Notes: generated from the letters alone by a model not told the origin. DNA of 49,646 bases from a virus (IMGVR_UViG_2740892231_000005); one strand, 5' to 3'; positions 28,352 through 45,630 are shown, counted from the stretch's first letter. A program made the numbers and translations.

Positions 28352-28466
28352 CGGGTTATCTCCGGTTTAACCAGGGCGGGTATCGCTCGGTTTCGGTTAT
28401 AACCTTAGGAAATTTTTTCCCACCCGTAAAGCACTTTTTATATAAATCTATAATTATATAATTCTA
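28352..28466 (-). promoter_or_regulatory. Repeated promoter/operator/leader cassette, copy 1
   Basis: About 110 bp near-identical to 35372..35490 and 45515..45630; ends in the TATAATTATA palindrome (28449..28458). Confidence 0.6.
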
Positions 28467-29051
28467 TGACACTTGCCAGAGAGCATCATGCAACTGGATA
28501 CCTCCGTTGCACTGGTTGCCCCAGCCATGCCAGCCATCAGGTAAATCACCGCGAGCAAACAGCTCAATACGAGGAACATCACCTAACAGTCTTACCAGCT
28601 TGTCACGAACCACATCAGGCTTCCGTGAATGTTCCAGACGAGGCGATGTAAACGACTGAATGATCCCCGCATCAAGGCGAGTCGGCAGTTTGCCTTTTAC
28701 CGCAAACAAGCAATCTTCACTGTTCGCACGAGTCATATGCCCCATCCCCATCACCAGCTTATCTGGCTGTCGGCTACCACATTTGTTCCATGTGAAGCCC
28801 TTCATGGTCATCAGCCTGAATCCCCATGCTTTCACCACCAGCAACGCTTCTTCTGGCTGAGTCGGAACCCACCACATGGCCAACAAACACGATTCAGGAT
28901 TAGCAAGCTGCCAGACAGGAATACGAGCAATCTCCTCAGCTTTCATCGTTGGATACTTAAAACCAGCTCCACGATTCCCATCCTTACACTTGTCTTTGTA
29001 TTCCCAGGGGGGATCTGCATAAATCAGATTAAACAATGCAATTGCCTCCAT
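28464..29051 (-). CDS. N6-adenine DNA methyltransferase, MT-A70 family
   Basis: 195 aa; DPPW motif in the N-terminus (LIYADPPWEY). Confidence 0.8.
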   Translation of the reverse strand: MEAIALFNLIYADPPWEYKDKCKDGNRGAGFKYPTMKAEEIARIPVWQLANPESCLLAMWWVPTQPEEALLVVKAWGFRLMTMKGFTWNKCGSRQPDKLVMGMGHMTRANSEDCLFAVKGKLPTRLDAGIIQSFTSPRLEHSRKPDVVRDKLVRLLGDVPRIELFARGDLPDGWHGWGNQCNGGIQLHDALWQVS

Positions 29052-29349
29052 GTTAGTTGTGCCTCCGGCGCTTATCTCCGGCAGTCATAACGCTGGCCAG
29101 CTCTACAGCAAACACAACGAAAAGGGCACTAACCAGACTGATTAATGCCCTTGCCTGTTGTGTGCCTGATATCGCCCGACAACGCTGTTTTGGTAACACG
29201 GCTACAGTTCCGCGCCGCTCCAGCTTTTACCCCTTTGCGGATAACAGGCCCTGCCTGTAACTTAGCCCCACGTTCGCCCGAAATGCGCACCAGGCACGCA
29301 TAAAGATGAGCACGAAGGAAGTAACTCCACCGCGCTTATCTTTATGTGT

Positions 29350-29425
29350 GAGAGTGAATTGGTGGCCCCTACCGGATTTGAACCGATGACCGTGCGATTA
29401 TGAGTCGCCTGCTCTAACCACTGAG
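29350..29425 (-). tRNA. tRNA with CAU anticodon (Ile2/ileX-like, or Met)
   Basis: 76 nt; cloverleaf folds by hand (acceptor GGCCCCT/AGGGGCC, D-stem GCTC/GAGC, T-stem ATCGG/CCGGT, CCA end); one mismatch at the top of the anticodon stem. Confidence 0.8.
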
Positions 29426-29604
29426 CTAAGGGGCCATATTTGATCTGTTTGTCTGGTGTGGCGCCGCGCACGAAAATCCCAGCCAATAAATTCAGGATTT
29501 TTGGGCGCGGCGGCATATCAGACAAACATGGTTGATGCATGCGCTAATGAGAAAAGCGCATAGAATGTTGTAACTATATATTTATATAATTATAGAAATA
29601 TATA

Positions 29605-29814
29605 TTACTTTGGACAGTTGATTTCCCATGCCCTGTTATGAGCCAGAATATCTTTCTTTGTCTGGCGGTCCATAACATCGATATCGTGATCAGTCAGGTA
29701 GATGGGCTTTACCCAATCACAGGCGGTATCAACCACCACCGGGACGCTTCCACGACTCCCGCAGCTCGCGATCAACATCGTCATCAGCCATATGGTTAAC
29801 ACTCTGCTGTACAT
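29605..29814 (-). CDS. o-spanin (Rz1-like outer-membrane lipoprotein)
   Basis: 69 aa; signal peptide with lipobox-like LIASC; overlaps the 3' end of the i-spanin gene in another frame. Confidence 0.65.
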   Translation of the reverse strand: MYSRVLTIWLMTMLIASCGSRGSVPVVVDTACDWVKPIYLTDHDIDVMDRQTKKDILAHNRAWEINCPK

Positions 29815-30007
29815 TGCCCACCTCTTTTGTCACTTCTATACGCCGCTCCGCAGTGGCTTTTACGGCGGCTGCATTCTCATTAATGCGCTGCTTTTCAGCT
29901 TCATCTTCGGCCTTTTCTCGCCCCTTCATACGACCAAAACCAAACGCGCCGAATGCAACCAATATAATTGTGCCAATAAATGACAAAACGGCCTTCAAAC
30001 CAGTCAT
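29729..30007 (-). CDS. i-spanin (Rz-like)
   Basis: 92 aa; N-terminal transmembrane segment then charged coiled-coil; follows the endolysin gene. Confidence 0.65.
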   Translation of the reverse strand: MTGLKAVLSFIGTIILVAFGAFGFGRMKGREKAEDEAEKQRINENAAAVKATAERRIEVTKEVGNVQQSVNHMADDDVDRELRESWKRPGGG

Positions 30008-30546
30008 ACCACCACTCGCTCTTTCATCCAGCCGTAGACAAACGACTCATTCGCCTCGCGCTTCTCCGCCAACTCCAGATAGCGTTCGCCCTGCGTACAG
30101 TTCAGCGACGTCAGCATCACCCGTTCGCCGTCTTTTCCCCGATTCCCAAGATAAGCACGCAGCGCATTAATGGTACGTGGACCGATTCGTCCATCTGCAT
30201 CCAAATCGGGATACAGCTTCCCACGCAGATTGAACACATTCAGCCAGCGTTGAAGCATTTTGGACGCCACTGTTGGCCCCATATTCACACCGGTATCACA
30301 CAGCTCTGCCGCAATATCAGAGGATAATGCGGCCACCTGATCAAAGCGTGGTCCGTACCAGTAATCAGCCTCAAGGATTTCTAGTGCCTGTTCGCGGGTT
30401 AAATCGCGCATATCGCCACGGTATCCATGAGCACGGGCAGTGTTCTGAGTAATGCCCCACTTTGTTGGGCCTCCCTTGTCGTCAGGGTGATCCACATAGC
30501 CGCCCTCTTTTCCAAGAATGCTGTTAAAAATCTCATCTTTGGTCAT
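30004..30546 (-). CDS. Endolysin, GH108 muramidase with peptidoglycan-binding domain
   Basis: 180 aa; EGGYVDHPDDKGGPTKWGIT matches the GH108 signature (recalled). Confidence 0.8.
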   Translation of the reverse strand: MTKDEIFNSILGKEGGYVDHPDDKGGPTKWGITQNTARAHGYRGDMRDLTREQALEILEADYWYGPRFDQVAALSSDIAAELCDTGVNMGPTVASKMLQRWLNVFNLRGKLYPDLDADGRIGPRTINALRAYLGNRGKDGERVMLTSLNCTQGERYLELAEKREANESFVYGWMKERVVV

Positions 30547-30865
30547 GATTAAATCCTAATGCGTCAACTATCCGCGCCAGATTGCCCCTGAAATACAGAA
30601 CAACGATGCAGATAATCAGATTTCCAATAACCACCAGCCAGTGGGATTCTTGATAAAGACCGAACACATAACGGAAGGGAACATTGGCGTATACAATGAC
30701 GTAGATATAAGCCAGAAAGGAAACAAATGGACGATGCCTGGAGTCTTTCCGTCGATAAAGCATCAGCGCCATTACTATTACTGTGCAAAGCACCGCATTA
30801 ATCAGTGCTGACGGGTCACTGCTTACCATTTGAACCCCCTCCACGTAAGCGGGAAAGCATTCCAA
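30533..30865 (-). CDS. Membrane protein, putative holin or antiholin
   Basis: 110 aa with about three hydrophobic segments between the holin and endolysin genes. Confidence 0.45.
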   Translation of the reverse strand: MECFPAYVEGVQMVSSDPSALINAVLCTVIVMALMLYRRKDSRHRPFVSFLAYIYVIVYANVPFRYVFGLYQESHWLVVIGNLIICIVVLYFRGNLARIVDALGFNHDQR

Positions 30866-31211
30866 AGATGCTACCGAGATCCTGGCTGTTTACGAACGTG
30901 AGGATTTTAATTGTCAATGCAGCCACAATAACCGCACCAAGCGCATCAAGAGGTCGATCGTTGTAGCTGGTCCATTTGGCAAGAAATGAGCCAACTAACG
31001 GCGCTCCAATCACTCCAACAATGAACGATGTAAAGAAATAGCCAATCAGCTTGAGACGGCTAATATTCACCGCTGTAGCAACATAGAAAACAGCGCCAGC
31101 AAATGCCCCGAATACAACGCCGTAATCAATACCAGTTGCAATACCAAAAACGCTGGCACCCATCAGGCCACCAGCAGCAACGGCCGTACCGGAAATTGGT
31201 TCTGCTGACAT
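30816..31211 (-). CDS. Putative holin
   Basis: 131 aa; multiple Gly/Ala-rich transmembrane segments; first gene of the lysis cassette. Confidence 0.55.
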   Translation of the reverse strand: MSAEPISGTAVAAGGLMGASVFGIATGIDYGVVFGAFAGAVFYVATAVNISRLKLIGYFFTSFIVGVIGAPLVGSFLAKWTSYNDRPLDALGAVIVAALTIKILTFVNSQDLGSIFGMLSRLRGGGSNGKQ

Positions 31212-31223
31212 TGAAATCCTCGT

Positions 31224-31255
31224 TAAAAAAAAAGCCCCGCCGAAAAAGGCAGGGC
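31224..31255 (-). terminator. Intrinsic terminator-like hairpin with U-run, 13 nt upstream of the holin start
   Basis: Minus strand: GCCCTGCC-UUUUUC-GGCGGGGC followed by nine U. Confidence 0.55.
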
Positions 31256-31763
31256 TTCATAAAGCAACAAATTACGCGGTAATCGCTTAACGCAGTTTTA
31301 CTACGTTAAATGAAACACTACACCCAGTTACCACCTAAAACAAGGTTTTTCCATAAAAAAAACCTTCATATCGTGGTTAATCGATCAATAAAAAAGCAAT
31401 GTTCAACTTTTTACCAACCGAACATCCCGACCTGGACTTCCATAATATTCGCCGATATGCCACTGCTTAAGTTGAGTAATCTTCTCCAACTTAACTCCCA
31501 TAGAGTCCAGTTTCTGCCATGTTTTCGGTTGTATGTGCTTCATTACCCGCTCTGAATATCTGAATACTGCTCGTAAGCGCATGGTTTCTCACTACAGCTT
31601 ATATAAGTGGTTTTTCCAGCGGTTTTGCGCCGCGCTGCGCTTCTCTTTTACTCCCTCTCTGGCAATTCCAGAAAATGAGAACAACACCACACGGCGATTG
31701 CTAACTCTCAACCACTGGCTGGGATAGCAAAGTCTGTATACACGGGAGATAAGCATCTTAGCT

Positions 31764-32372
31764 TTACGGTTTTTCATCGTTTTGCTCTCCTGCGTCTCCT
31801 TTGGTGCGAATTCCAGCGGCGCGCTCGGCTTCACTTTGTTCCCAAAACCACTTGTGAAGCTCCATGAGCTTTTCGTCAATCGGTGCATATTTGCGATTAA
31901 AGTAGGCCTGAGCATCTTTCTCAGATTCGTCCGGCAATTCGCCTGGACCAAACAGTGTGTTATAAATCCATGCCAGTCCGCTTTTAGCGTCGCCAGTCGA
32001 TTGCCATTCGATAATGGCAGCCTGCATGACCAGAATGTTTTTCCCGATTAATAGGTCCAGTTCTTTGTACCTGTTGCGGATGTATGCATTCTCGCTTTGT
32101 AATTTTGCGTTGCGCTTCTCTGCGGCTTCCAGCTCAACACGCAGCTTCCCTACCGTTAGCGCAATTTCCTCGTTCTCCTGGTCACGGCGTTTTATGTATT
32201 GCTGGTTTCTTTCCCGTTCATCCAGAAGCCCCAGCACAATGTGTGGCGTTATCAAGGACTCAAATTCGGCAACAGCTTGCTCGCCTCGCTTGTAATTCTT
32301 AATCCCACCTAAATCTTTCGCGTTCTGTGCCGCCTCACGCAGTGCCTGATAGTTAATTGCTGTGCTGTTAGT
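31764..32372 (-). CDS. Coiled-coil phage protein (Ea22-like?)
   Basis: About 200 aa from MTNSTAINYQ; heptad-rich central region. Confidence 0.35.
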   Translation of the reverse strand, partial: TNSTAINYQALREAAQNAKDLGGIKNYKRGEQAVAEFESLITPHIVLGLLDERERNQQYIKRRDQENEEIALTVGKLRVELEAAEKRNAKLQSENAYIRNRYKELDLLIGKNILVMQAAIIEWQSTGDAKSGLAWIYNTLFGPGELPDESEKDAQAYFNRKYAPIDEKLMELHKWFWEQSEAERAAGIRTKGDAGEQNDEKP

Positions 32373-32712
32373 CATTCCAGGCCTCCAGCTCGTTCTGAAT
32401 CTCCTCGTCAACCTCGTCATTGGTGGCGTCTTCGTTCAGATGGTCGCGCGCCTCTTTGAGATACTGTTCACGGCGTTCGTGGTACCAGGCAGAGAACTCC
32501 GGCGACCATCCTCGATTAGCCCCCTGAAAATCTACCATCGCATTATCCTCAGCCATACGCTCGACCATGCAATCCGCGGTGGTCAGTGCAACCTCACGGA
32601 TGTACCCCCGCAGGTCACGCTTACGCCAATACGGGCTATATTTTGAGTCGCAGCGACCTTTAAATTCGACGGTCCAGCGACGGATGCAGCGTGCGTTAAG
32701 TGATTTGCTCAT
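32368..32712 (-). CDS. Hypothetical protein
   Basis: 114-aa ORF. Confidence 0.4.
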   Translation of the reverse strand: MSKSLNARCIRRWTVEFKGRCDSKYSPYWRKRDLRGYIREVALTTADCMVERMAEDNAMVDFQGANRGWSPEFSAWYHERREQYLKEARDHLNEDATNDEVDEEIQNELEAWND

Positions 32713-32714
32713 AG

Positions 32715-33398
32715 TTATGCTTCCTGAATACGCTTAAACTCAATTACCCATACCCACGGGTTAGATAGCCAGTTCTCTTGCCCGTAAATACCGCGCCAGA
32801 TATCACCAAAGCCAACGCGATAAACAGCTTCAGGTGGCGTAATCTTGTACGTCGCCGGAGTTGCGCCTTCTGCTTTAGCATCTGCCTCGCTCATGTCATG
32901 CAGCCGCTCCACACGCACGTCGGTAATTTCCAGCAAAATACGCGAAGCCCAGCGCGGCATGTGAATTGATGGACACCACCCGCCATCAAACTTTTCATTC
33001 ACAGTGTGAGGCTTCCAGTCGGCATCATCGGGTATCGACCATAAGCCATAATCCCCCGGTTTTTGCTCACAACTGGCCCGATAAATCCTTGCTGCGTTCT
33101 TCTCATCGCCACGACAAAGGTTGTCGTTCCAGTCCACACTGCAACCATCCTCATTGCCTAATATCGCCCACGCTTCACGGACCCATATGCGATCACCAAC
33201 GTTACCGAACGGGCATAAACCATGTTCAGGTGCATCCATAACGTGGGTATAGACACCATTGCGTTTCTTTGTCGGTTTACGGATAACCAGGCAGTTATCG
33301 GCCCTGACATTTTTTACAGGTCGGCGAGTCTGCGTCTTCCTTCCTTCGAGGATGGCCCTAACCATATCGTCATTAAAAACAACACCACGTTCTTTCAT
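32715..33398 (-). CDS. Hypothetical phage protein (ASCH/PUA-like?)
   Basis: 227 aa; N-terminus MVRAILEGRKTQTRRP typical of a prophage protein family (recalled). Confidence 0.45.
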   Translation of the reverse strand: MKERGVVFNDDMVRAILEGRKTQTRRPVKNVRADNCLVIRKPTKKRNGVYTHVMDAPEHGLCPFGNVGDRIWVREAWAILGNEDGCSVDWNDNLCRGDEKNAARIYRASCEQKPGDYGLWSIPDDADWKPHTVNEKFDGGWCPSIHMPRWASRILLEITDVRVERLHDMSEADAKAEGATPATYKITPPEAVYRVGFGDIWRGIYGQENWLSNPWVWVIEFKRIQEA

Positions 33399-33553
33399 TT
33401 AGAAGCCACCTTGTTCAATTTCCGGCGACAAGACACGCAATCATCAGGACTCTCAAAAGTGTCTGGCTCACGGTAATCACCAAAATACATCCAACGGCCG
33501 CAAATGCTGGTCACTTCACCTTCATTAAAATAATGATGTTTATTCGCCTTCAT
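33395..33553 (-). CDS. Small Cys-containing protein (zinc-ribbon-like?)
   Basis: About 52 aa from MKANKHHY; CGRW...CVSC. Confidence 0.3.
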   Translation of the reverse strand: MKANKHHYFNEGEVTSICGRWMYFGDYREPDTFESPDDCVSCRRKLNKVASK

Positions 33554-33582
33554 TGGCCTGACCCATCCGGCATTTTTCTTGC

Positions 33583-33948
33583 TCACTTCAACTCCTCCCG
33601 ACGACGTTCCTGAAGCTCTAGCATTGCGGCTCGGAAATCCTGCCACCATTCTTCATCGGCTACTGGGGTGTTCCGCTCCAGCACCTTGTCCGCATCGGCG
33701 ATCAGGTTTGCCAGACTCTTGTCTGAAATCTTCGTTACCGGAGTCGTTGGTTGCTCAACCTGCCCGATAGGTTTTATCGTGCTCAAAAGGAGGCGACGGC
33801 GGGAAAGTGGTGCCCCACAACGACGGCCATCTTCCTTGCGATATGTTTCTTTCGGACCAACACACCAGGTTGTCGGCGTCTCGCGCAACTTCACTTTTTT
33901 CTCACCATCATTGGTAATGATTATTCCGGTATGTGTTTTGATGCTCAT
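33583..33948 (-). CDS. Hypothetical protein
   Basis: 121-aa ORF. Confidence 0.4.
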   Translation of the reverse strand: MSIKTHTGIIITNDGEKKVKLRETPTTWCVGPKETYRKEDGRRCGAPLSRRRLLLSTIKPIGQVEQPTTPVTKISDKSLANLIADADKVLERNTPVADEEWWQDFRAAMLELQERRREELK

Positions 33949-34247
33949 GCCACAGCCCCTCTCAACGGCTTAACTTTGGCTAATAAGGTGTTAAACAACA
34001 TGGAGTTAGGATTCATGCCAAATGGCAATTCCGGTTTAGCGGAGTAGTACAGGCAACCATTTATTTTCCTGGTTGTTATCTGTCCTTCGGCAACCATGCT
34101 TCTCAGTCTGCAACGCATAGAGTTCTGCGACACACCAATGTGCTCCGCGATTACGTCCACTTTTGAACATGGGTGATCGGTCAGGAAATTAATCACATCT
34201 TGGGGGTTAATAATTTTGCGTTTCATTGTCGAGGCATCCTTATACAT
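33945..34247 (-). CDS. Putative winged-helix DNA-binding protein
   Basis: 100 aa; HTH-like segment VDVIAEHIGVSQNSMRCRLRSMVAEGQI. Confidence 0.45.
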   Translation of the reverse strand: MYKDASTMKRKIINPQDVINFLTDHPCSKVDVIAEHIGVSQNSMRCRLRSMVAEGQITTRKINGCLYYSAKPELPFGMNPNSMLFNTLLAKVKPLRGAVA

Positions 34248-34273
34248 TTATATAAATATATAATTCTATATAC

Positions 34274-34292
34274 GGCGGGAGACGTCCCGCCG
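34274..34292 (-). terminator. GC-rich palindromic hairpin downstream of the 34304..35371 gene
   Basis: cggcggga-gacg-tcccgccg; weak U-tract. Confidence 0.35.
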
Positions 34293-34303
34293 TAGGCTTA
34301 CTG

Positions 34304-35371
34304 TCAGGCTTTCAATAGCGATTCTTTTAGATATCGGGCATCAGCCAGGGCGTTTGGAGTAATCTTGCGAACCCATGCATTACGGGTTGGACTCCACTTA
34401 AAGGCGCGTGATTTAAGCAGCGAACGAATGTTTGCCTCTGGTTTGCCAGGGAAATAAAACAGGATGCGGTTATCCTCTGGATCTATCTCCATAGAAAAGC
34501 CGTCGTATTCTTCGCGCTGTGCTCCTGTTACAGACTTGACCGATTCAAGCTCCTTAATACGGCTCTGTAGTCGTTTGATTTCGGCGTTATTGTTGCTCAG
34601 TGCGTATGAAGGGAATCCGATGCGCCCACAGAAATCTCCGGCCAGTAACTCTTTGGCTTCGCTTTCTGTAAACCTGAGATCGATTAATGCAGAAAGCTGC
34701 TGTAATTGGTCTTTTTTGTATTTGCGAATGGCCTTATTTGCGGCCTTCATTTTGACGTGTGACTTCATGCAGCCTTGCAGCTTACGAAGCAACTTAAATA
34801 GCGCATCAGGATCATCAGACGAAATTCCATTACGACCAACACCTGCGGCTTTGCTCTCGTAGTGTGATGCTTTACTTTCGCATTCAACAAACGCTTTTCT
34901 TAATAACGCATCAGCTTTAGACAAACGGCGGCGATGGCCTTTCGCGCTATAATGGTCAACTAAAATCGGCTGGCCTAACGGGATCACATCCAACAGGTCA
35001 TGCGCTCGCTTATGCGCTACCGCACCTTCTTTTCTGGCTTTTTCTGCACGAGCAATATATCGGGCAAGACGCGCGTTCTGGCGTTCCTGATAGGTGTTTA
35101 CGTAATCATCTCCGCGCTGCTGCTGTTCAAGCCATGCTTTGCGCAGATCTTCTGTTACGTCCACCAGCTCCGCAGGGATACAACCAGTTTGGGCTTCATA
35201 AGAGTAACCATCCTCATAGATACGCCCATCATCTTCAACAAAGAAAAAGGTTTCGTGCTCATCGCTTTTGACCATACGACCATTAACATGGCGTAATAGG
35301 TAGCCAGTATCAGTGCTTAACAGGCTGTTAGGGTTGTTGATCCAGTCAGAAATAATTACTTGTTTATTCAT
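34304..35371 (-). CDS. DUF3560-like protein (tentative), first gene downstream of promoter cassette copy 2
   Basis: 355 aa from MNKQVIISDW (start chosen by conserved leader and RBS); C-terminal FYFPGKP...FKWSPTRNAW motif. Confidence 0.5.
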   Translation of the reverse strand: MNKQVIISDWINNPNSLLSTDTGYLLRHVNGRMVKSDEHETFFFVEDDGRIYEDGYSYEAQTGCIPAELVDVTEDLRKAWLEQQQRGDDYVNTYQERQNARLARYIARAEKARKEGAVAHKRAHDLLDVIPLGQPILVDHYSAKGHRRRLSKADALLRKAFVECESKASHYESKAAGVGRNGISSDDPDALFKLLRKLQGCMKSHVKMKAANKAIRKYKKDQLQQLSALIDLRFTESEAKELLAGDFCGRIGFPSYALSNNNAEIKRLQSRIKELESVKSVTGAQREEYDGFSMEIDPEDNRILFYFPGKPEANIRSLLKSRAFKWSPTRNAWVRKITPNALADARYLKESLLKA

Positions 35372-35490
35372 CAGATTTCTCCGGTTTAACCAGGGCGGGT
35401 ATCGCTCGGTTTCGGGCATAACCTTAGGAAATTTTTTCCCACCTGTAAAGCACTTTTTATATAAATCTATAATTATATATTTATAGATTT
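35372..35490 (-). promoter_or_regulatory. Repeated promoter/operator/leader cassette, copy 2
   Basis: Near-identical to copies 1 and 3; contains TATAATTATA (35468..35477). Confidence 0.6.
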
Positions 35491-35540
35491 TCGATGTTCC
35501 CGATATCTACACACCATCAAAACAGCTCAAAATGACACTT

Positions 35541-35918: not shown

Positions 35919-35921
35919 TGT

Positions 35922-37909: not shown

Positions 37910-38027
37910 ACCACGATATGTGGTATTAAACCCACATATCGTGAGTTTTTCAATGGGCGAAACAAAAAATAACCTTCTATTTGTGGTCCACCTCTCGTCT
38001 TACCATGTGAAAACCACTAAATGTGGT
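37910..38027. promoter_or_regulatory. Immunity operator cluster: palindromes ACCAC-N5-GTGGT at 37910..37924 and 38013..38027, partial sites at 37933..37943 and 37983..37991
   Basis: Seen in sequence between the divergent cro-like and cI-like starts. Confidence 0.65.
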
Positions 38028-38064: not shown

Positions 38065-38721
38065 ATGAAAAGCAACGACGAGAACATCAAGAAAGAAATA
38101 GGTCTGCGCATTCAGACTCTACGGAAACAATCCGGCATGACTGCCGGAGATCTCCAGCAAGTCACTGGAATAGGCTTAAGCACCTTGCAGAACTATGAGG
38201 CCGGATTAAGACAACCATCTATACCTGCCATCAAGAAAATCGCGCACGCCCTGAAAGCATCAGCGCCTTATATCGCGTGCTTAACAGATAACCCGTTCCC
38301 ACCCCAGAATACTAACGCTCCTGTTATTCCTGGGCTTGTAGCTATAAAAAATGACATAGCATCGCACGCCGGAGAAAAGCCAGTGCTGGCGATAGAACAG
38401 GAGATTCTACGAAGCAAGAACATCAACCCATCGTCTCTGTCAGTTCTCCAGAGCAACGATGAGTTAATGTCACCAACAATATCCCCTGGCTCCCAAGTCC
38501 TGATTAATACAGACGATACAGAGATTCATGAGGGGATCTATGCCCTTGAAGACAGAAATGGCCTGGTTGTTTTGAGGCACTGTAGAGTCATACCGGGTGA
38601 CAATGCTGTTATGCTGTCAACCGAAAGGGATGCTGAAATGAACACTAAGCATCTGAATAATGAGGAATTTAAGCGTTATAAAGTTCTTGGCCGCGTAGTT
38701 AGTGTTGTCAACTGGTTATGA
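38065..38721 (+). CDS. cI: CI-like repressor (N-terminal XRE HTH, C-terminal S24/LexA-like domain)
   Basis: 218 aa; HTH (LRKQSGMTAGDLQQVTGIGLSTLQNYEAG); C-terminal domain with S24-like features. Confidence 0.8.
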   Translation: MKSNDENIKKEIGLRIQTLRKQSGMTAGDLQQVTGIGLSTLQNYEAGLRQPSIPAIKKIAHALKASAPYIACLTDNPFPPQNTNAPVIPGLVAIKNDIASHAGEKPVLAIEQEILRSKNINPSSLSVLQSNDELMSPTISPGSQVLINTDDTEIHEGIYALEDRNGLVVLRHCRVIPGDNAVMLSTERDAEMNTKHLNNEEFKRYKVLGRVVSVVNWL

Positions 38722-38813
38722 TACACAGCACGGCGGAAGCCGTGCATTTCTACGCTCAAAAAAACCACATTTTGTGGTTTTGACAACATGTAAAAGTATA
38801 AAAGAGGCTACGC

Positions 38814-39188
38814 ATGGAATTACATACAGCCAATAAAAACGAAACTCTGATCACTGCTGGAATCGAAATCCAAGCGTTGAACATAGCGATTGAGTGTATG
38901 TTATGCCAAATCATTGATAATGAGAAAGATATCGACTGGATAGAATCTATCCTTCATCTGGCATCAGAACAAAAAATCTGCCTCAAAACGGCCTTACAAT
39001 ACGATGTGCCAGCGGTATCGAAGCTGTGCCAACCATTGATGGCATATAACAGAGCTATTATTTCTGTATGCCTCATGATTCTCGATGAAAACACCCCTCT
39101 TAGCGACCGCTCAGAAGCTGCTCTAACCCTCTCACGTAAACAGCGACAGCTAGCAAATCAACTGATATCAACGATAGCTGACCTCTGA
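38814..39188 (+). CDS. Hypothetical protein co-oriented with and downstream of the repressor gene
   Basis: 124-aa ORF; AT-rich by eye; followed by a hairpin. Confidence 0.5.
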   Translation: MELHTANKNETLITAGIEIQALNIAIECMLCQIIDNEKDIDWIESILHLASEQKICLKTALQYDVPAVSKLCQPLMAYNRAIISVCLMILDENTPLSDRSEAALTLSRKQRQLANQLISTIADL

Positions 39189-39192
39189 CTGC

Positions 39193-39212
39193 AAGCGGGC
39201 TAACGCCCGCTT
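39193..39212 (+). terminator. Hairpin (aagcgggc-taac-gcccgctt) closing the repressor operon
   Basis: 8-bp GC stem; weak U-tract. Confidence 0.45.
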
Positions 39213-39320
39213 ATATGATTATAGATTTATATAATTATATAAAACGCTTTTCATCCGCCAAAAAGTTGGTTATGCTTACCTCGTTCTATAAATATAGATT
39301 TATAGAATTATATAATCAAA
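39213..39320. repeat. AT-rich iteron cluster (tatgattatagatttatataattatataa ... tataaatatagatttatagaattatataat) upstream of parA; candidate centromere or operator
   Basis: Contains exact TATAATTATA (39230..39239) and the repeated unit ATAGATTTATA. Confidence 0.55.
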
Positions 39321-39338
39321 CACATGGAGTCTCGACAA

Positions 39339-39992
39339 ATGACTATCTCTGTAGGTATTTTCAACGGAAAAGGCGGCGTAACCAAATCAACAATTGCCCG
39401 TGCTTTAGCAGTTGCTTATGCAAAGGCTGGCTGGAATGTATGCCTGATCGATATGGATGTGCTTAACGGAACGGTAACGCGTTGGGTACAACGCAGAATG
39501 GCCAACAATATCGAACCAGCAATCGCGGCGCAGCCGTGCGGCACACCATCACAAGTCCAGAAAATCATCGAATCAGAAGTATACGACTTGGTTATCGTCG
39601 ATGGCGGTGCCTACGCATCTGAATCAGTACCGAAGCTCTCTGAATTTCTGGATATGGTTATTTTGCCAACCAGATTCTCTACCGATGACCTGGAAACCAC
39701 CGTTAACACAGCTCACGGCATCGTTAAAAAGGGTGTACCAATCAAGAAAATTTGCATGGTGTTTTCCGGCGCGGCTGAAAACGAAGCTGACTATATTGAA
39801 GCCCAAGAGTACCTGGCTAATACGCCATACTTTGTTGTCGATAAGTACATTCCCCACAAGCCAGCTCTGAGCAAAGCTCAGGATAAGGGCTTAAGCCTCA
39901 TTGAGTGCTCATACGTTGCGCCACGCAAAAAGGCAGACGACGTTATTCAGGGGATTATCAACCAGCTTGAGGCTCTGACTACTGCCGCGTAA
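39339..39992 (+). CDS. parA: ParA-family partition ATPase
   Basis: Deviant Walker A GKGGVTKST; start chosen at the second ATG with GGAG RBS (ORF track gives 39324). Confidence 0.8.
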   Translation: MTISVGIFNGKGGVTKSTIARALAVAYAKAGWNVCLIDMDVLNGTVTRWVQRRMANNIEPAIAAQPCGTPSQVQKIIESEVYDLVIVDGGAYASESVPKLSEFLDMVILPTRFSTDDLETTVNTAHGIVKKGVPIKKICMVFSGAAENEADYIEAQEYLANTPYFVVDKYIPHKPALSKAQDKGLSLIECSYVAPRKKADDVIQGIINQLEALTTAA

Positions 39993-40020
39993 TATATAAT
40001 TATAGTTTTATAGATTTATA
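39985..40020. repeat. Second iteron block (aatatataattatagttttatagatttatataa) between parA and the RHH gene
   Basis: Exact TATAATTATA at 39995..40004. Confidence 0.5.
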
Positions 40021-40035
40021 TAAGAGGGGATGCAC

Positions 40036-40284
40036 ATGGCCGCACCATCAAAACCACCAAAGAAGAACAGCAAAGGCGTACCGCCATCGATCGAACAACC
40101 GCAGGTTTTCGACCCGACTGAAACGCCAACCAGAACCAAATCAGGTGGGGCACAAATGGCGTTTAACGTCGACCCTGAATTTAAACGCGAGTACAAAACG
40201 TTCGCCAGCTCAATGGATATGTCATTGAAAGAAGTGCTGACAAAATCTTTTGAGTTACTCAAGGCTCAATACAACCAGAAGTAA
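40036..40284 (+). CDS. ParG-like ribbon-helix-helix centromere-binding protein (type Ib partition)
   Basis: About 82 aa; disordered basic N-tail then RHH-like C-terminus (MAFNVDPEFKREYKTFASSMDMSLKEVLTKSFELL); directly after parA. Confidence 0.55.
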   Translation: MAAPSKPPKKNSKGVPPSIEQPQVFDPTETPTRTKSGGAQMAFNVDPEFKREYKTFASSMDMSLKEVLTKSFELLKAQYNQK

Positions 40285-40313
40285 GAGAAGGTGACGGCCT
40301 CCAGCGCCAACTG

Positions 40314-40496
40314 TTGGCCGTCGCGACACAACAAGGGGAATTTGTTATGTCCGAGCAACAATATACACGGTTACTGAAAACTCGTCTAACCGACCTCAAA
40401 CGGCTGCAAGCTGGTCGCTTATTTGCCCTGCTATCCACCAGGCCAGAATGGGTACGTGAAGCAGTTCTGAAAGGCTTAATGCGCTCCAGCGTTTAA
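40314..40496 (+). CDS. Hypothetical small protein
   Basis: 60-aa ORF downstream of the partition genes. Confidence 0.3.
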   Translation: MAVATQQGEFVMSEQQYTRLLKTRLTDLKRLQAGRLFALLSTRPEWVREAVLKGLMRSSV

Positions 40497-40506
40497 ATTC
40501 AACCAT

Positions 40507-40528
40507 AAAAAAGGCCCCCGAAGGGGCC
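40507..40528 (-). terminator. Intrinsic terminator hairpin (ggccccc-gaa-ggggcc) with U-run on the minus strand; possibly bidirectional
   Basis: A6 run on the plus strand 40507..40512 immediately 5' of the stem. Confidence 0.55.
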
Positions 40529-40537
40529 TAATCGCTA

Positions 40538-40660
40538 CTTGCTGCTAATGTTTATCGTCACATTCAGAGCGTTATCAGTAATCTTCCAACCCTCCCCATG
40601 TGGCGTAAACAAAGCTCCAGTAACAACGATAAAAATACACATACAGTATTTTTTCATTGT
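40538..40660 (-). CDS. Small ORF (40 aa, MKKYCMCIFIVVTGALFTPHGEGWKITDNALNVTINISSK) with signal-peptide-like N-terminus
   Basis: Hand-translated; AAGGG RBS 6 nt upstream; terminator directly downstream. Confidence 0.3.
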
Positions 40661-41054
40661 ATGGCCCTTACAGGCCGTTTCACGGCATCCCCACCGACGA
40701 AAACAACGCGAGAGCAAGCACGGCTGCTTGTGCTTGCATGTACGGCAACGGAGAATCCTCCCCTAAAGTCGGTGCCCGGGTGCGAATCGGCGGGAAGGTC
40801 CACAGGTATTTTACGATTATTTTAAGATTAGTAATAGGAAAGAAATTAAACGAAAAAACTCGTTTATTTTCACAAAATCAGTAACCTACCCACAATCTGT
40901 GAGTTTGCAGGCACAACAAGAACCACAATTTTTTGAAGCATAATAGTGGACTATTATTACCTTTTGGGTAAAATTAACTTGCTGCTTGTGCTTGCGTGGT
41001 TGTTTATACAACAACGTAATGCTGAAAGGACCGCGAATCCGATCAGCACGAAAG

Positions 41055-41082
41055 AACCGTCCTCAAAAGGACGGTTTTTTTG
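41055..41082 (+). terminator. Intrinsic terminator (aaccgtcct-caaa-aggacggtt followed by T7)
   Basis: Seen in sequence; overlaps the stop codon of the convergent 41063..41635 gene. Confidence 0.6.
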
Positions 41083-41635
41083 TTTCTCCCCCTTCCTTCC
41101 CAAATGATTCAAATGTTAATGAGAGAGAATCATTTGATATGTTCGATTTAGCGCCGTTATCGACCCAATTTCTGTATGCTTCATCACAACAGTACCTTAC
41201 GGCAGTTGGAATAACAGGAGAGCCGCCCAGAAATGAAAATCCCATTGAGCTTATGCTAATTCTTTCGAATGGCCTATTTCTCAATGCTTCAAATCCCTTG
41301 CTGTTGAAGTAACTCAGCATCAGAGGTAAAAGGTTATCCTCGTCTTGACTGATTGTTCCCGGGAAAAAGTAGTAACCATGGCGATTAAATTCGGGAATCA
41401 GTTTTTCTACCAACAACATGAAATTCATTGGGGTAATATTAAGGGCAGAGCAAGCACCAAAAAGAGCATCAACCGTTAATACAGACTGTCCGTTCTCTAT
41501 CTTTGTCCATGCGTTTGGTGTTTTTCCAGCAGCTTGAGCCAGCACTCCTTGATGCACACCTCTTTCTAGCCTAAGTTCTTTTATGATCATTAGGTGGATT
41601 GTTGAAAAACATGAGTTTTTTGACGTTTCAGTCAT
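41063..41635 (-). CDS. XRE-family HTH regulator with about 130-aa C-terminal domain of unknown function
   Basis: Start at MTETSKN; HTH (LRLERGVHQGVLAQAAGKTPNAWTKIENGQ). Confidence 0.55.
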   Translation of the reverse strand: MTETSKNSCFSTIHLMIIKELRLERGVHQGVLAQAAGKTPNAWTKIENGQSVLTVDALFGACSALNITPMNFMLLVEKLIPEFNRHGYYFFPGTISQDEDNLLPLMLSYFNSKGFEALRNRPFERISISSMGFSFLGGSPVIPTAVRYCCDEAYRNWVDNGAKSNISNDSLSLTFESFGKEGGETKKPSF

Positions 41636-41772
41636 TTTTTTATCCCCATATTGAATTTTTTCCTTGTTCCCAACTTTAACAAAACACCACAACTCAGGAT
41701 TGAGTCATTCCCTACAGGAACTATACATTCCCGTCTTTGGTATATCAAGAAAATTAAAAGCTCGGCATTCAA

Positions 41773-41789
41773 ACCCACACTATGTGGTT
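41773..41789. promoter_or_regulatory. Additional CI-type operator (cccac-actat-gtggt) in the divergent region between the XRE gene and the antirepressor operon
   Basis: Same ACCAC-N5-GTGGT palindrome as in the immunity region. Confidence 0.55.
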
Positions 41790-42081
41790 TAGTCTGTTAA
41801 AATCCGCCGTATTGACATGAATGCGTCATTGGTGGACACTTTCCGAGCCGTAGCAAAATCTACGGTCGGGATTGGCGTCCCGATTGCACAATGGCGCATA
41901 CCGCGTTAGCGGTTTTTTTATGCGTAAAGCACTGCTACACCCAAATTATGGTGGGGCGTGCGGGGGCGGAGAAATCCGCGCCGGGTTTGTCATTGTGCCG
42001 GTTACGCCAACCCTGTACGTCTCACCACCATATTGATTGGCGTCATTGGTGGTGATAGTTCCTTTAATCGGAGATATCACA

Positions 42082-42273
42082 ATGACAAACCTACCCCATG
42101 ACTATTACGTCAACCTCGTAAAGATCCTTCTCAAGAAAGCCTCATACGCCGATAAATTCCGCCTGGCTGAAATCATCGAGCGCGAAGCTATGCGCATCGC
42201 CAGCAACGATAACGCTGTTTCTGACGCAAAAATCTCCCTCGTAACCAAAGTTGTTATGGGAGGTGCAAAATGA
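42082..42273 (+). CDS. Small protein upstream of, and translationally coupled to, the antirepressor gene (icd-like position)
   Basis: 63 aa from MTNLPHDYY with GGAGA RBS; its stop overlaps the ant start (ATGA). Confidence 0.45.
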   Translation: MTNLPHDYYVNLVKILLKKASYADKFRLAEIIEREAMRIASNDNAVSDAKISLVTKVVMGGAK

Positions 42274-43421
42274 AAACGCTTCCGACCGTTAACACCCTAC
42301 AGCCTATCCTGCATAATCAGATTCCAGTAATCACAACTGAGCTACTCGCCCGCCTTTATGGAACAGAAGCAATCCGTATACAGCAAAATCACCATGAAAA
42401 TAAAACTCGGTTCATTGAGGGGAAGCACTTCTTTAAAGCTGTTGGTGATGAACTCAAAAATTTGCGACTAGTTTTAAACGAGTCACAAAATGAGGTGCAA
42501 ATTTCCCCCAAAACTCGCTCTCTCATCCTCTGGACAGAACGCGGGGCTGCACGTCACGCCAAAATGCTTGAAACTAACCAAGCGTGGGATGTGTTCGAAC
42601 GGCTGGAAGACTGCTATTTCAACCAGAACGCGCAAACGGCCGCGACCGTAACCGTCTCGCCAAACAATGCTCGTGAGGTTGTCGATACGCTCAACGCCAA
42701 ACCGATGTTTTACATTAAGGTGTGCAACAACGAGCCACTCACAACCTCAGCCGATGTTGCCCAGGCATTCAGCACCACAAACAATTCCATCGTTATGGCC
42801 ATCGATGCGTTACGCATTCCTCGCACAGCTGCGGCACGTCATTTCTTTAAAGAGCAACGACCGCTGGAAGGAAGCGACCGCGAAATAACAATCTATCGCA
42901 TGACAAAAGACGGATTTACCTTGCTCATGGAAAGTATCGACGGTCCAGGCGTGAAAGATATCAAGCTGGCCTACATTGAAGCCTTTAACGCTATCAGCAG
43001 CGTGTTAAAAACACAGTACGAGCGTGATCTGGCTAAACGACTGTACCAGGAAAAAACGATTATCCGCGCGGCAACAGAGCATAATCGGCTATTAACGGAA
43101 CCGAACTACAGGAAGGAACTAATCAAGGAGTTTGACAAGGCAACAGGGAAAACCAAAGCGGCGCTAAATCTGCCAGCAATGACTCAGGAAAATGTGATAT
43201 CAGCCTTACTTCTTGATCTGCTCAGAAACGCCAGAGCACTTATCAGCTTTGACGAAAACCTGAATCCTCAGCTCAAGCTACTACCACCGACAGGCAAAGT
43301 AGTCGACCAAGCTGATCACAACAGCATACTCAGCGTTCTGGATGCAAACCTGCCAGCCAGGACACTACAGGATCTGATAAAAACATGTGCTGATAAGCTG
43401 GCACAGAAAAGCAGACCATAA
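42270..43421 (+). CDS. Antirepressor-like protein (ORF6N/Rha-type N-terminal domains)
   Basis: 383 aa; two N-terminal segments resembling ORF6N/Rha-type antirepressor domains (PVITTELLARLYGTEAIRIQQNHHENKTRFIEGKHFF). Confidence 0.7.
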   Translation: MKTLPTVNTLQPILHNQIPVITTELLARLYGTEAIRIQQNHHENKTRFIEGKHFFKAVGDELKNLRLVLNESQNEVQISPKTRSLILWTERGAARHAKMLETNQAWDVFERLEDCYFNQNAQTAATVTVSPNNAREVVDTLNAKPMFYIKVCNNEPLTTSADVAQAFSTTNNSIVMAIDALRIPRTAAARHFFKEQRPLEGSDREITIYRMTKDGFTLLMESIDGPGVKDIKLAYIEAFNAISSVLKTQYERDLAKRLYQEKTIIRAATEHNRLLTEPNYRKELIKEFDKATGKTKAALNLPAMTQENVISALLLDLLRNARALISFDENLNPQLKLLPPTGKVVDQADHNSILSVLDANLPARTLQDLIKTCADKLAQKSRP

Positions 43422-43425
43422 CTAC

Positions 43426-43455
43426 AAGGGGCTACGGCCCCTTACTCTTTTCTCT
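43426..43455 (+). terminator. Intrinsic terminator after the antirepressor gene
   Basis: aaggggc-tacg-gcccctt followed by a T-rich tract. Confidence 0.6.
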
Positions 43456-44157
43456 CTTATCAACACCAGAGACTTTCTGAAAATCCTTTCGAATAGCGTC
43501 AGCGTCACGCGCCAAGCCCATACTGGAACGTGTCGCCATATGACGAAAATGATCAACTGCCGGAAACAAAGAAATAATGGACCCAATAGCTTGCAGCAAA
43601 CTCGCTTTTCTACGCATCATAATTCCACCATAACCGATAACCACCCTTCAGACACAACCCCCCCTCCCCCCATACAGGGTGCCCTTTACCGGAGTTCCGG
43701 CCCCTTCTCAAAAGCATCAAAAAAAGCTCGAGATAGAGTACCGGAACTCATGCCACCAGATAGCTCCACATCGTTTCCAATGCTTCGCCGCCGTGTGCGC
43801 CCTGTGGCCCACAATCATGCCATTGGTCGTCTGATATACCTTCTTCTGCTCATAGAGCACAGGCGAGTTGTCGCACTCCTGCCTTTCTCAGACTCGACTT
43901 AGTTTAGATCGCTGTTCCTGGCTTGCGTCAGCACACTTTCCCCTTGTACGCATACCCGCGCGCCACTTCGCCCAAAAACACCGAACCCAACGAAGTGGCA
44001 AAGACAACGACGCGAGCGTGAGTCTGAAATGGGCACCAGTAAAAAAGGGGTTGCAGGCGCAAAAAGATTTGATTATCTTTAGACGCAAGAAAGCCGCCCC
44101 AATCAAGAGGTGTCTTTTTAAATCCAGCCTACCAAGCAAGATTTAAATTTCAGACTG

Positions 44158-44185
44158 AAAACCGCCCGGCAAGGCGGTTTTTGTC
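44158..44185. terminator. Bidirectional terminator-like hairpin (aaaccgcc-cggcaa-ggcggttt plus T-run)
   Basis: Seen in sequence; downstream of the minus-strand XRE gene and at the end of an ORF-poor region. Confidence 0.55.
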
Positions 44186-44230
44186 TTTCTGGCGCTTACA
44201 TTACACCACCATAAAACGATCCGTAAAGGA

Positions 44231-44503
44231 TCATTTGATCCCTTGTTCCAATTCTGCCGACACTTTAACCTTTTCCCATACAAGGGTTTGCAGCCTTAAC
44301 AGAATCGCATCTTTATCAAGGTGTGAAAGATCCTTAACCATATCGTCAAACGACAGAACGCGAATGGCCATCTCAATGACCCTCGGCGGCTCCCCCTTCT
44401 CATATCGCTTATATGTAGCCAACGATATCCCAAACTCTTCGGCTGCTCGCTCCTGCGTCCAGTTCATCCCACGACGCCATAATTTCAATTCGTAACCCGT
44501 CAT
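44231..44503 (-). CDS. XRE-family HTH regulator
   Basis: 90 aa; HTH (WTQERAAEEFGISLATYKRYEKG). Confidence 0.7.
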   Translation of the reverse strand: MTGYELKLWRRGMNWTQERAAEEFGISLATYKRYEKGEPPRVIEMAIRVLSFDDMVKDLSHLDKDAILLRLQTLVWEKVKVSAELEQGIK

Positions 44504-44604
44504 TACATCCTCTACCTTTCCCTAGATATTCAATAAATTAGACATAGCCACTCACGACAAAATAAGATGTATTAACAATCCAATCTTTAGGCTTTAGGTA
44601 AAAA

Positions 44605-45030
44605 ATGAGTTCATCTGCTTTTGTCACCGTGGTCACTGGTGTAAGTGTTTTTGTTCTAGGCCAACTCATCGTCAAAGGAGCTATTGAGCCTTACATTTCA
44701 TTCAGGGAACAACTAGGGAAAATATCCAATCTGTTATTATGTAACCAAGCAAAAATAGTGAATCCTGGCTCGAACTTAAAGCCAGAAATCATTCATGATC
44801 TAAAAGATTCCGCAGCACAGTTAATGGCGAAATATTCCACTTTACCTTTCTATATCAAAAAGTTACATATCGGCTTTCGTCTTGTTCCATCAGCCACCGA
44901 GATTCTTGGGGCAGCTCAAAATTTGAACTATATAGCGTCAATACATGAAGGTAAGACTGGGGAGAATCCATCTAAGCATCTCGAAGAGATTGGCCATATG
45001 CTCAAAATACCAACTACCTATTCAAGCTAA
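44605..45030 (+). CDS. Hypothetical protein with N-terminal transmembrane segment; AT-rich gene
   Basis: 141 aa; hydrophobic N-terminus (AFVTVVTGVSVFVLGQLIV); visibly lower GC than its neighbours (by eye). Confidence 0.5.
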   Translation: MSSSAFVTVVTGVSVFVLGQLIVKGAIEPYISFREQLGKISNLLLCNQAKIVNPGSNLKPEIIHDLKDSAAQLMAKYSTLPFYIKKLHIGFRLVPSATEILGAAQNLNYIASIHEGKTGENPSKHLEEIGHMLKIPTTYSS

Positions 45031-45133
45031 CCCAATGTAAGTTATCGGCTTGCCCCACAATAAGTTATCTATCTTCAAACGCCCCCTATATTAACACTCG
45101 CAAAGTGTCAAAATGACACTTTGCGCATTGTGT

Positions 45134-45514
45134 TTACTTAACGAGGAATAAAAATGGTTTATTGTTCGGCGGTGTAATCGGGGCTGGCTCGCTTTTGCTC
45201 ATGCGATCAGTGTACCAGGCCAACTCCTTGTCAAAGTAAGCCTGATTAAAATAGGCCATGAATGTAGTTTCAAATCCATAACGACCGCTAATACGCAGCA
45301 TCTGATTGCCGTTCTCTGTTTCCAGATATACCTGGGCACGTTCCTGATTCTCCTTCAGCCAGGTTAAAGCCTCATCGCATGAGGACACACGATACTCATC
45401 ATCGTAGCAGTCATCGATGCGGCTTGAGGAAGAACGGCAAATCACGCCAACAGAACCAGCCAGGATAGTTTGAATTTTAAGGAAAGCGTTTTTGCGGATT
45501 TTAATCATGCTCAT
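45134..45514 (-). CDS. Hypothetical protein, first gene downstream of promoter cassette copy 3
   Basis: 126-aa ORF with the conserved leader and RBS upstream. Confidence 0.5.
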   Translation of the reverse strand: MSMIKIRKNAFLKIQTILAGSVGVICRSSSSRIDDCYDDEYRVSSCDEALTWLKENQERAQVYLETENGNQMLRISGRYGFETTFMAYFNQAYFDKELAWYTDRMSKSEPAPITPPNNKPFLFLVK

Positions 45515-45630
45515 CGGGTTATCTCCGGTTTAACCAGGGCGGGTATCGCTCGGTTTCGGGTATAACCTTAGGAATTTTTTTCCCACCTGTAAAGCACTTT
45601 TTATATAAATATATAATTATATAATTCTAT
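45515..45630 (-). promoter_or_regulatory. Repeated promoter/operator/leader cassette, copy 3
   Basis: Near-identical to copies 1 and 2; TATAATTATA at 45612..45621. Confidence 0.6.

Follow-up and report, generated by a model that had tools for sequence, protein, structure and literature searches.

Three repeated cassettes of a myovirus-type phage-plasmid resemble KorC-repressed promoter-leader modules of IncP-1 plasmids

Three near-identical cassettes precede short leftward units in IMGVR_UViG_2740892231_000005, a viral DNA stretch of 49,646 nucleotides. The stretch was analyzed at its full length (the window) and is essentially a whole phage-plasmid of myovirus type, roughly 49 kb in size. 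Each cassette is probably a composite, repressible promoter-leader module of the kil-kor kind found in IncP-1 (RK2/RP4) plasmids, serving entry-phase genes. A homologue of the IncP-1 repressor KorC, 95 amino acids (aa) long, is predicted to bind a palindrome within each promoter, and a ParG-like partition protein is a likely second regulator.

Results

A preliminary description of the sequence had reported three near-identical cassettes of 110 bp, each ending in a GGAG-type ribosome-binding site (RBS) and an ATG. Alignment and a repeat search bear out the copies, their places and their ends, and give a true length of 115–122 nt (Table 1). MAFFT aligned the three copies as an unbroken conserved block of ~120 nt, from AT-rich repeats through the ATG. 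The repeat search returned 28348–28469, 35367–35488, and 45511–45632 with 87–97% ungapped identity. Identity between the -35 hexamer and the ATG is 92–94%, and the homology stops sharply, within a few bases of the ATG. All three are on the minus strand and end in GGAG, 5–8 nt, and ATG. The start codon of cassette 2 is the one annotated by RefSeq in a relative.

Read 5′ to 3′ on the minus strand, a cassette consists of an array of short repeats, 7 nt (AAAGTGC), a -35 hexamer, a 17-nt spacer, a -10 hexamer, and a leader of ~45 nt. The -35 hexamer is TTTACA in copies 2 and 3 and TTTACG in copy 1, the -10 hexamer is TAAGGT, and the spacing of 17 nt is constant throughout. The spacer is almost entirely a palindrome, TGGGAAAAAATTTCCTA, which extends into the first bases of the -10 hexamer. 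The leader contains a hairpin, and AAACCGGAGA, 5–6 nt, and the ATG complete the cassette.

The cassette promoter was not called in a generic promoter scan of the window because TAAGGT is a poor -10 hexamer. In relatives the hexamers are near consensus, with TTGCAT-17-TATTAT in IMG/VR relatives and TTGACA-17-TAATAT in IncP-1. Cassette 3 directly follows an intrinsic terminator (45641–45663), and its gene therefore needs a promoter inside the cassette. The constant spacing, the near-consensus hexamers of relatives, and this terminator argue for a predicted promoter of sigma-70 type (TTTACA, 17 nt, TAAGGT). The earlier reading of the blocks as promoter/operator/leader cassettes is supported by this promoter, by two types of operator, and by a covarying leader hairpin.

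Table 1. Coordinates of the cassettes, regulators, arrays, and cargo genes in the window
Feature	Coordinates	Strand	Remarks
Cassette 1	28349–28469	-	Array, promoter with palindromic spacer, leader hairpin, Shine-Dalgarno (SD) sequence, ATG of 89-aa gene
Cassette 2	35369–35488	-	Ends at ATG of 355-aa DUF3560 gene
Cassette 3	45512–45632	-	Ends at ATG of 126-aa gene
Hexamers of cassette 1	-35, 28425–28430; -10, 28402–28407	-	
KorC-type operator, 17 bp	28406–28422; equivalents 35425–35441, 45569–45585	-	TGGGAAAAAATTTCCTA
Leader hairpin	28369–28392; equivalents 35388–35411, 45532–45555	-	AACCGAGCGAUACCCGCCCUGGUU; ~1–3 nt from predicted 5′ end
SD sequence GGAG	28360–28363, 35379–35382, 45523–45526	-	
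Array of cassette 1	28438–28469	-	TCATAGAA TTATATAA TTATAGAT TTATATAA; ends 7 nt before -35
Arrays of cassettes 2 and 3	35457–35488, 45601–45632	-	
KorC homologue	46856–47143	-	95 aa, helix-turn-helix (HTH), unannotated; candidate repressor of spacer palindrome
Fourth palindrome promoter	47170–47198	-	Upstream of korC homologue; no array or hairpin leader
parA promoter between two four-unit arrays	39211–39315	+	Arrays at 39211–39242 and 39284–39315
ParA	39324–39992	+	222 aa, small Walker-type; Pfam CbiA/ParA/MipZ
Array	39992–40023	+	Directly before RBS of ParG-like gene
ParG-like protein	40036–40284	+	82 aa; candidate centromere/operator binder
Array without cassette promoter	34240–34271	-	After GC-rich hairpin closing the DUF3560 unit
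Array without cassette promoter	29574–29605	-	Upstream of tRNA-Met (29363–29435) and MT-A70 methyltransferase gene
Cargo of cassette 1	27885–28351	-	89-aa gene (28082–28351) and 66-aa gene (27885–28085)
Cargo of cassette 2	34304–35371	-	355-aa DUF3560 protein
Cargo of cassette 3	45134–45514	-	126-aa protein, phrog_8090
isrK-like RNA, C4 antisense RNA, and ORF6N/Rha-type antirepressor gene	41847–42032, 42270–43421	+	

The main candidate regulator is the KorC homologue, which is predicted from its sequence to bind the spacer palindrome. It matched IncP-1 KorC in tblastn with 53% identity over 77 aa (E 3.5e-19), and the matched gene is annotated korC and lies within a klcA-klcB-korC-kleA block (locus L027). 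Compared with PDB, the KorC-family profile matched the C-terminal HTH domain of AcrIF24 (E 8e-7); its match to Aca1, with an E of about 0.7, is far below significance. All relatives encode a homologue of the 95-aa protein, whose gene is preceded by the same kind of promoter or belongs to an operon driven by a cassette. When one genome per species was scanned, 48 loci with KorC relatives came up, many of them on plasmids of Burkholderiales and other Proteobacteria. The HigA antitoxin was considered as a binder of the palindrome and rejected, as Pfam places the toxin-antitoxin pair at 45678–46330 and the palindrome promoter drives the 95-aa gene.

That promoter consists of TTGCCA, 17 nt containing TAGGAAAAGATTTCCTA (47174–47190), and TACCAT. 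With it the window has four palindrome promoters, far above chance. An additional KorC-operator promoter was seen in locus L017 (~20543–20579, minus strand), with TTTACA, a spacer containing CAGGACCTTTAGTCCTA, and ATAT; it has no hairpin leader and is thus like the korC promoter of the window.

Pairing was assessed in 26 distinct cassettes of the phage-plasmid lineage. The operator palindrome is 92% paired and three of its pairs change on both sides, and the leader hairpin is 97% paired with four such pairs. Their covariation score was reached in 0 of 500 shuffles, and slid controls gave 23–47% pairing. The operator is almost purely Watson-Crick symmetric and therefore fits a DNA site bound by a dimer.

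The cassettes are homologous to the IncP-1 promoters klcAp, kleAp, and kleCp (RK2/RP4/R751). A cassette profile searched with nhmmer found the promoter-plus-leader part, without the arrays, adjoining korC in most loci with korC relatives, usually in two or three copies per locus and with E of 1e-10 to 1e-5 in IncP-1-like loci. The order in IncP-1 is TTTAGCGGCTAAA, GTTTAGCTAAAG, TGCTTGACA, GGT, TAGGACATTTTGTCCTA, ATAT, and the leader GAAGGCCGGGCAUGUCGCCCAGGUCAACUACCGGAGAGUUCCGAUG; we take the first two to be the KorB (OB) and KorA (OA) operators of RK2. The spacer palindrome of the IncP-1-like loci is TAGGACATTTTGTCCTA or TAGGGCATTTTGCCCTA and has the same form as that of the window. Both systems have the homologous repressor, a 17-bp TAGG-N9-CCTA palindrome at the same position in the -35/-10 spacer and with the same outer bases, the sequence AAAGTGCTT flanking the -35 hexamer on its upstream side, a 5′ leader that is homologous and has a hairpin and a ACCGGAGA...CCGAUG translation start, and several near-identical promoter copies per replicon. 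Operators for a second regulator and a partition protein, which are candidates in the window, lie just upstream of the -35 hexamer in both.

Differences concern the replicon, the hexamers, the upstream operators, and the cargo. The window is a phage-plasmid with an IncFII-type RepA, its hexamers are weaker, and its cargo genes are unrelated to klc and kle. The position of OA and OB is occupied by the 8-bp arrays in the cassettes of the window. No OA operator was found in the window at up to one mismatch, no OB operator was found in the cassettes, and the window has a single OB-like site at 26025–26037. This palindrome, TTTAGCGGATAAA on the minus strand, has one mismatch to TTTAGCSGCTAAA and directly precedes the start of a ParB/Srx-domain gene (25397–26020); 7 of 100 shuffles give one match.

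The klcA, kleA, and kleC promoter regions of RP4 are under KorC regulation, and in pOXA-48 the promoter of the korC operon has a KorC site in its -35/-10 spacer (PMC12365149). Loss of korC is reported to be toxic or destabilizing in pOXA-48. The IncP-1 units are under tight steady-state repression and are induced upon entry (PMC7314908, PMC12365149). At steady state RP4 klcA is among the weakest-expressed genes, owing to KorA and KorC, and in fresh transconjugants this antirestriction gene is up ~120- to 220-fold and kleA-F ~16- to 50-fold (PMC7314908). RA3 has KorC as its main global regulator (PMC7414963), and KorA and KorB act in cooperative co-repression (PMC2665229, PMC2680271, PMC11790492). 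A search of the available literature found no paper substantively linking KorC to phage-plasmids. By sequence homology, the cassettes appear to belong to the kil-kor regulon, in its KorC branch, with the upstream operator swapped and in a setting so far undescribed. Co-regulation by a shared repressor, as proposed in the preliminary description, is supported as a prediction by the homology to KorC-repressed promoters. The regulators it had listed fared differently: a ribbon-helix-helix (RHH) protein is likely the second regulator, CI and the winged-helix protein are not implicated, and the KorC homologue was not on its list.

What had been described as an AT-rich palindromic motif at the head of each cassette is indeed AT-rich but is an array of four 8-bp TTATAKAW units, which recurs at five further loci. 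A 24-nt triple-unit pattern has 29 matches in the window, all inside the eight array loci, with 0 expected. Three of the five further arrays are at the partition locus, where the parA promoter is cassette-like in its upstream half, with an array followed by AACGCTTTTCA against an array followed by AAAGTGCTTTACA in the cassettes. The array at 34240–34271 precedes the RBS of a 100-aa MarR/winged-helix-like gene (33945–34247); its position and that of the array at 29574–29605 are kept in a Salmonella relative, and the former also in Serratia.

The order of parA followed by a small-protein gene is conserved in relatives. Those with a ParA only 52–56% identical to that of the window (a Serratia plasmid and IMG/VR sequences) have arrays at the same positions with different units, which are TTAAAGAW/ATCTTTAA in Serratia and L020 and GATATAAA/TATATATT in L015–L019. 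In every lineage, the unit type of the cassettes is the unit type around parA. The predicted strand of the 82-aa protein has three variants, QM(A/S)FNV, (A/L)MNFNV, and QLLLRL, which go with the three unit types. The N-terminal half of this protein is basic and disordered, and its C-terminal part has a strand-helix-helix pattern; in an AlphaFold2 monomer, residues 1–40 are disordered and helices span 47–59 and 62–79.

In the type Ib system ParF-ParG/parH of TP228, a small ParA likewise precedes a small protein whose N-terminal tail is flexible, and tetramer boxes with AT-rich spacers between them make up the parH centromere (PMC3130281). Short direct-repeat arrays in a 7–8-bp register at the par promoter are common to the omega/ParG systems and the window. 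The omega arrays of pSM19035 are upstream of several promoters, as in the window, and serve as centromeres (PMC9499535). The window differs from omega/ParG in having no significant sequence match, another unit sequence, and arrays fused to a KorC-type promoter. The par locus and its arrays are consistent with a type Ib partition architecture of the ParG/omega type, and the 82-aa ParG-like protein, whose assignment to the RHH class is weak, is likely the second regulator and the predicted binder of the arrays.

The 24-nt core of the leader hairpin has exactly three occurrences in the window, with 0 expected. A leader covariance model gave 83 matches from 46 sources, scored 45–64 bits in IncP-1-like loci, and matched only the three cassettes in the window. 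In 46 leaders, including those of IncP-1-like loci, 92.7% of the hairpin cells are paired and both sides have changed in five pairs, with the covariation score reached in 0 of 500 shuffles. The second pair of the outer stem, in 62 distinct sequences, is A-U in 8, G-C in 19, and G-U in 35; the frequent G-U suits an RNA helix, not a DNA palindrome. In 70 of the 73 strongest leader matches, a KorC-type palindrome (TAGG-N9-CCTA) ends 4–7 nt before the start of the model, so the predicted transcript always opens with the hairpin. Loop sequences are not conserved, even within one genome. This variability and the 5′-end position favor a structural role and argue against a sequence-specific loop binder. 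Most likely the hairpin protects the 5′ end and insulates translation from, and standardizes it for, the downstream gene.

The leader has no match in Rfam at the gathering score or at E ≤ 1. It is conceivable, though we regard it as doubtful, that the ~45-nt leader is an undescribed cis-acting RNA, obligatorily coupled to KorC promoters and with a specific regulatory role beyond that of a generic stabilizer. Such a role would be, for example, binding a plasmid or host factor or timing a burst of translation after DNA entry. This RNA would span proteobacterial plasmids from IncP-1 to the phage-plasmid lineage, with a 5′-end hairpin followed by ACCGGAGA...CCGAUG.

The cassettes had been placed upstream of three leftward operons of small unknown proteins. 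The three units are there, each with only one or two genes and closed by a terminator or a terminator-like hairpin: a strong intrinsic terminator (27840–27863) after the cargo of cassette 1, a GC-rich hairpin after that of cassette 2, and a palindrome with a 12-bp stem (45099–45125) after that of cassette 3. The cargo proteins have no assigned function in Pfam, PHROGs, or NCBIfam, as the preliminary description had it, but not all are small, the first genes encoding 89, 355 (DUF3560), and 126 aa. By analogy with IncP-1, the cargo may be entry-phase establishment or anti-defense genes.

Cassette identity is 0.79–0.94 within a genome and 0.43–0.71 between lineages, and the copy number in relatives is 2 to 4. 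The genes behind the cassette differ among relatives and include a 126/98-aa family, DUF3560, DUF1391, and families of 103, 86, 191, 137, and 61 aa. In L015–L019 (IMG/VR), three or four tandem cassettes lie within ~2.5 kb, ~3–6 kb from parA, each with a single small gene; the korC homologue follows one of these, behind a terminator. With such varied cargo and tandem copies, the module behaves as a portable regulatory cassette. In this respect alone it resembles the PeSL cassettes of T4-type phages (PMC2839356). Recent spread had been offered as one explanation of the high identity; recent duplication is only part of it, as the cassette is a conserved, co-evolving module in many plasmids.

Discussion

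The proposed mechanism is as follows. Host sigma-70 RNA polymerase would start transcription ~7 nt downstream of TAAGGT. A dimer of the KorC homologue on the 17-bp palindrome between the -35 and -10 hexamers would block initiation, and the protein would also repress its own promoter through the palindrome there. The ParG-like protein would bind the four 8-bp units upstream of the -35 hexamer. The arrays flanking the parA promoter are presumably autoregulatory and may be centromeres, so the levels of KorC and of the partition protein would jointly set cassette expression. The transcript would begin with the conserved hairpin, followed by the exposed GGAG. Naked DNA entering a cell would meet neither KorC nor the partition protein, so that the cassette promoters and the korC promoter would fire. 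The resulting burst from the three short units (89 plus 66 aa, DUF3560, and 126 aa) would be throttled once KorC and the partition protein accumulate, and the units would be kept low during plasmid-state lysogeny. The logic is akin to that of Aca-controlled anti-CRISPR promoters, where a small HTH autorepressor binds an inverted repeat in a strong entry-phase promoter and shuts it off. The KorC-family match to the HTH domain of AcrIF24 is a further likeness to these systems; the window differs from them in that no cargo gene was identified as an anti-CRISPR.

Several points weigh against this interpretation. We infer from the comparisons above which regulator binds where, in which direction it acts, where transcription starts, what the hairpin does, and what the cargo genes are for. 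The lineages are few, so covariation supports the paired structures without proving them, and the IncP-1-like majority of sequences hardly varies in the hairpin. The 82-aa protein has no match in Pfam, in PDB by sequence or hidden Markov model, or in Foldseek. Two of seven relatives of this protein have a faint Pfam HicB match, and hhalign places it in register with residues 35–70 of ParG (1P94) at a P of 6.7e-4 but with a probability of only 27%. A 124-aa protein (38814–39188, plus strand; phrog_7632), encoded between the CI-like gene and parA in all relatives, could bind the arrays instead. When IncP-1 Klc and Kle proteins were compared with the window and its cargo by blastp and tblastn, only KorC matched, so an establishment or anti-defense role is assigned to the cargo by analogy only.

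The weak -10 hexamer also leaves room for an activator. In that case the cassettes would be middle or late phage promoters, turned on for lytic genes by a phage activator on the spacer palindrome, in the manner of P1 Lpa. P1 Lpa promoters are not known to have a -35 hexamer; they carry an inverted repeat near -22 and drive late genes. The palindrome of the cassettes is centered near -19 to -22, their TAAGGT is weak and was missed by a consensus scan, and cassettes 1 and 2 are within a long leftward block that also contains lysis genes. The window cassettes nevertheless have a conserved -35 hexamer, their promoters are near consensus in relatives, and their palindrome and leader are homologous to KorC-repressed promoters, with a KorC homologue on the element. 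Their units of one or two genes end at a terminator or terminator-like hairpin and encode no virion or lysis function. A Lpa-like late promoter was rejected on the -35 hexamer, the KorC homology, and the short non-lytic units, and activator-dependent middle or late promoters are very unlikely. If instead the leader were the target of one of the element's small RNAs (C4, isrK-like, or ryfA-like), or a riboswitch or attenuator, its near-invariance among the three copies and the three small-RNA genes nearby would be accounted for. Predicted duplexes of the leaders with C4, isrK, or ryfA are, however, no more stable than those formed by shuffled leaders. The leader is only ~45 nt, has neither a terminator nor an Rfam match, and also occurs in IncP-1 plasmids, which lack these small RNAs, all of which makes such a role highly improbable.

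Two further explanations concern the arrays and the repetition itself. The arrays could be AT-rich UP elements, curved DNA, or sites for CI, H-NS, or IHF, with KorC the only regulator. They are very AT-rich, are full of TATAAT-like hexamers, and lie at about -43 to -75, a position typical of UP elements, and the weak RHH assignment of the 82-aa protein speaks for this. Against it, the unit sequence and the 8-bp register are constant within a genome at all eight loci, and where the units differ from one lineage to another they do so together and along with a change in the small protein encoded behind parA. The arrays also bracket the parA promoter as in type Ib autoregulation by ParG at parH (PMC3130281), and the intergenic region next to cI has a different palindrome; we consider this explanation unlikely. 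Nor do we find it probable that the cassettes are portable boundary elements, PeSL-like, that shuffle small genes and are homogenized by gene conversion, with no shared regulation. The different gene families behind the cassette, the copy number of 2 to 4, the tandem copies, the higher identity within genomes than between lineages, and the sharp end of homology at the ATG would all follow, and PeSLs provide a precedent (PMC2839356). These cassettes of T4-type phages are repeated, short sigma-70 promoters with stem-loops that flank variable small genes. Their stem-loop is a terminator, whereas the hairpin of the window is in the 5′ untranslated region downstream of the promoter, has no U-tract, and is followed by the SD sequence; there is no sequence relation, and PeSLs lack the operators. 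Mobility is compatible with a regulatory role. Operator symmetry, hexamer spacing, hairpin covariation, and the SD sequence are individually constrained, the elements are conserved across proteobacterial plasmids, and no recombination product was observed. The repressible promoter-leader module stays the probable reading of the cassettes.

Other features of the element

A search for the cassette in other phage-plasmids, which had been suggested as a check, found it in ~60 non-mobilizable plasmids of ~47–50 kb, with three copies in each. Their hosts are E. coli, E. fergusonii, E. albertii, Klebsiella, and Salmonella, and one of the plasmids of the reference strain E. coli ATCC 25922 (NZ_CP009073.1) belongs to this family. 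Yersinia phages vB_YpM_39, 41, and 44 (49 kb) have 96–97% identity to the window over long stretches. RefSeq annotation of a near-identical plasmid includes myovirus head, tail, and lysis genes, a CI-like repressor, ParA, a Rha-type antirepressor, and a RelE/HTH toxin-antitoxin pair. The RepA of IncFII type in the window was identified by Pfam. The KorC homologue is labeled only as a hypothetical protein in 66 plasmids from E. coli, Salmonella, Klebsiella, and Serratia and in the three Yersinia phages. PLSDB entry NZ_CP032086.1 has six cassette copies in 94 kb, ~2x the usual size, which suggests a dimer or cointegrate of the element. The pSLy3 phage-plasmid group was considered as the home of the element and dropped, as the literature puts pSLy3 in the SSU5 supergroup. 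We take that supergroup to be a different kind of element from the one in the window.

Other repeats and RNAs were noted in the window. An exact 55-nt direct repeat occurs at 70–124 and 136–190 with a spacing of 66 nt, three 93-nt repeats with 72–83% identity to the reference copy are at 3343–3735, and 45-nt repeats with a period of 120 nt are at 9093–9377. A full-length match to the Rfam RNA ryfA (40507–40803, minus strand; 142 bits versus a gathering score of 80) is just downstream of the ParG-like gene, adjoining the partition locus; we presume that this RNA might be a stabilizer like those of type I toxin-antitoxin systems. An isrK-like RNA and a C4 antisense RNA are in tandem upstream of the ORF6N/Rha-type antirepressor gene (41847–42032 and 42270–43421, plus strand), an arrangement that resembles the immI-like immunity region of P1 and P7. 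A 32-nt palindrome with 12-bp arms (CACGATATGTGG...CCACATATCGTG) is at 37912–37943 (plus strand), together with further ATGTGG-type repeats, in the divergent region between the CI-like gene (38065–38721) and leftward genes. These are likely CI operators and are unrelated to the operators of the cassettes.

Significance

The KorC repressor, operator, promoter, and leader of the klc and kle maintenance operons of IncP-1 resistance plasmids recur in a temperate myovirus living as a plasmid and tie this phage-plasmid to the best-studied global control circuit of plasmids. Exchange of the partition-protein operator to match the element's own partition system would be a modular rewiring of the regulatory region. 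A gene so far labeled as a hypothetical protein gains a name and a testable function, and a 5′ leader of wide conservation, absent from Rfam, is brought to light. A few short units emerge as likely entry-phase genes and, as such, are good choices for anti-defense screening. If the leader does prove to be a regulatory RNA of its own, the cargo would be an exchangeable pool of entry-phase (anti-defense) genes common to plasmids and phages.

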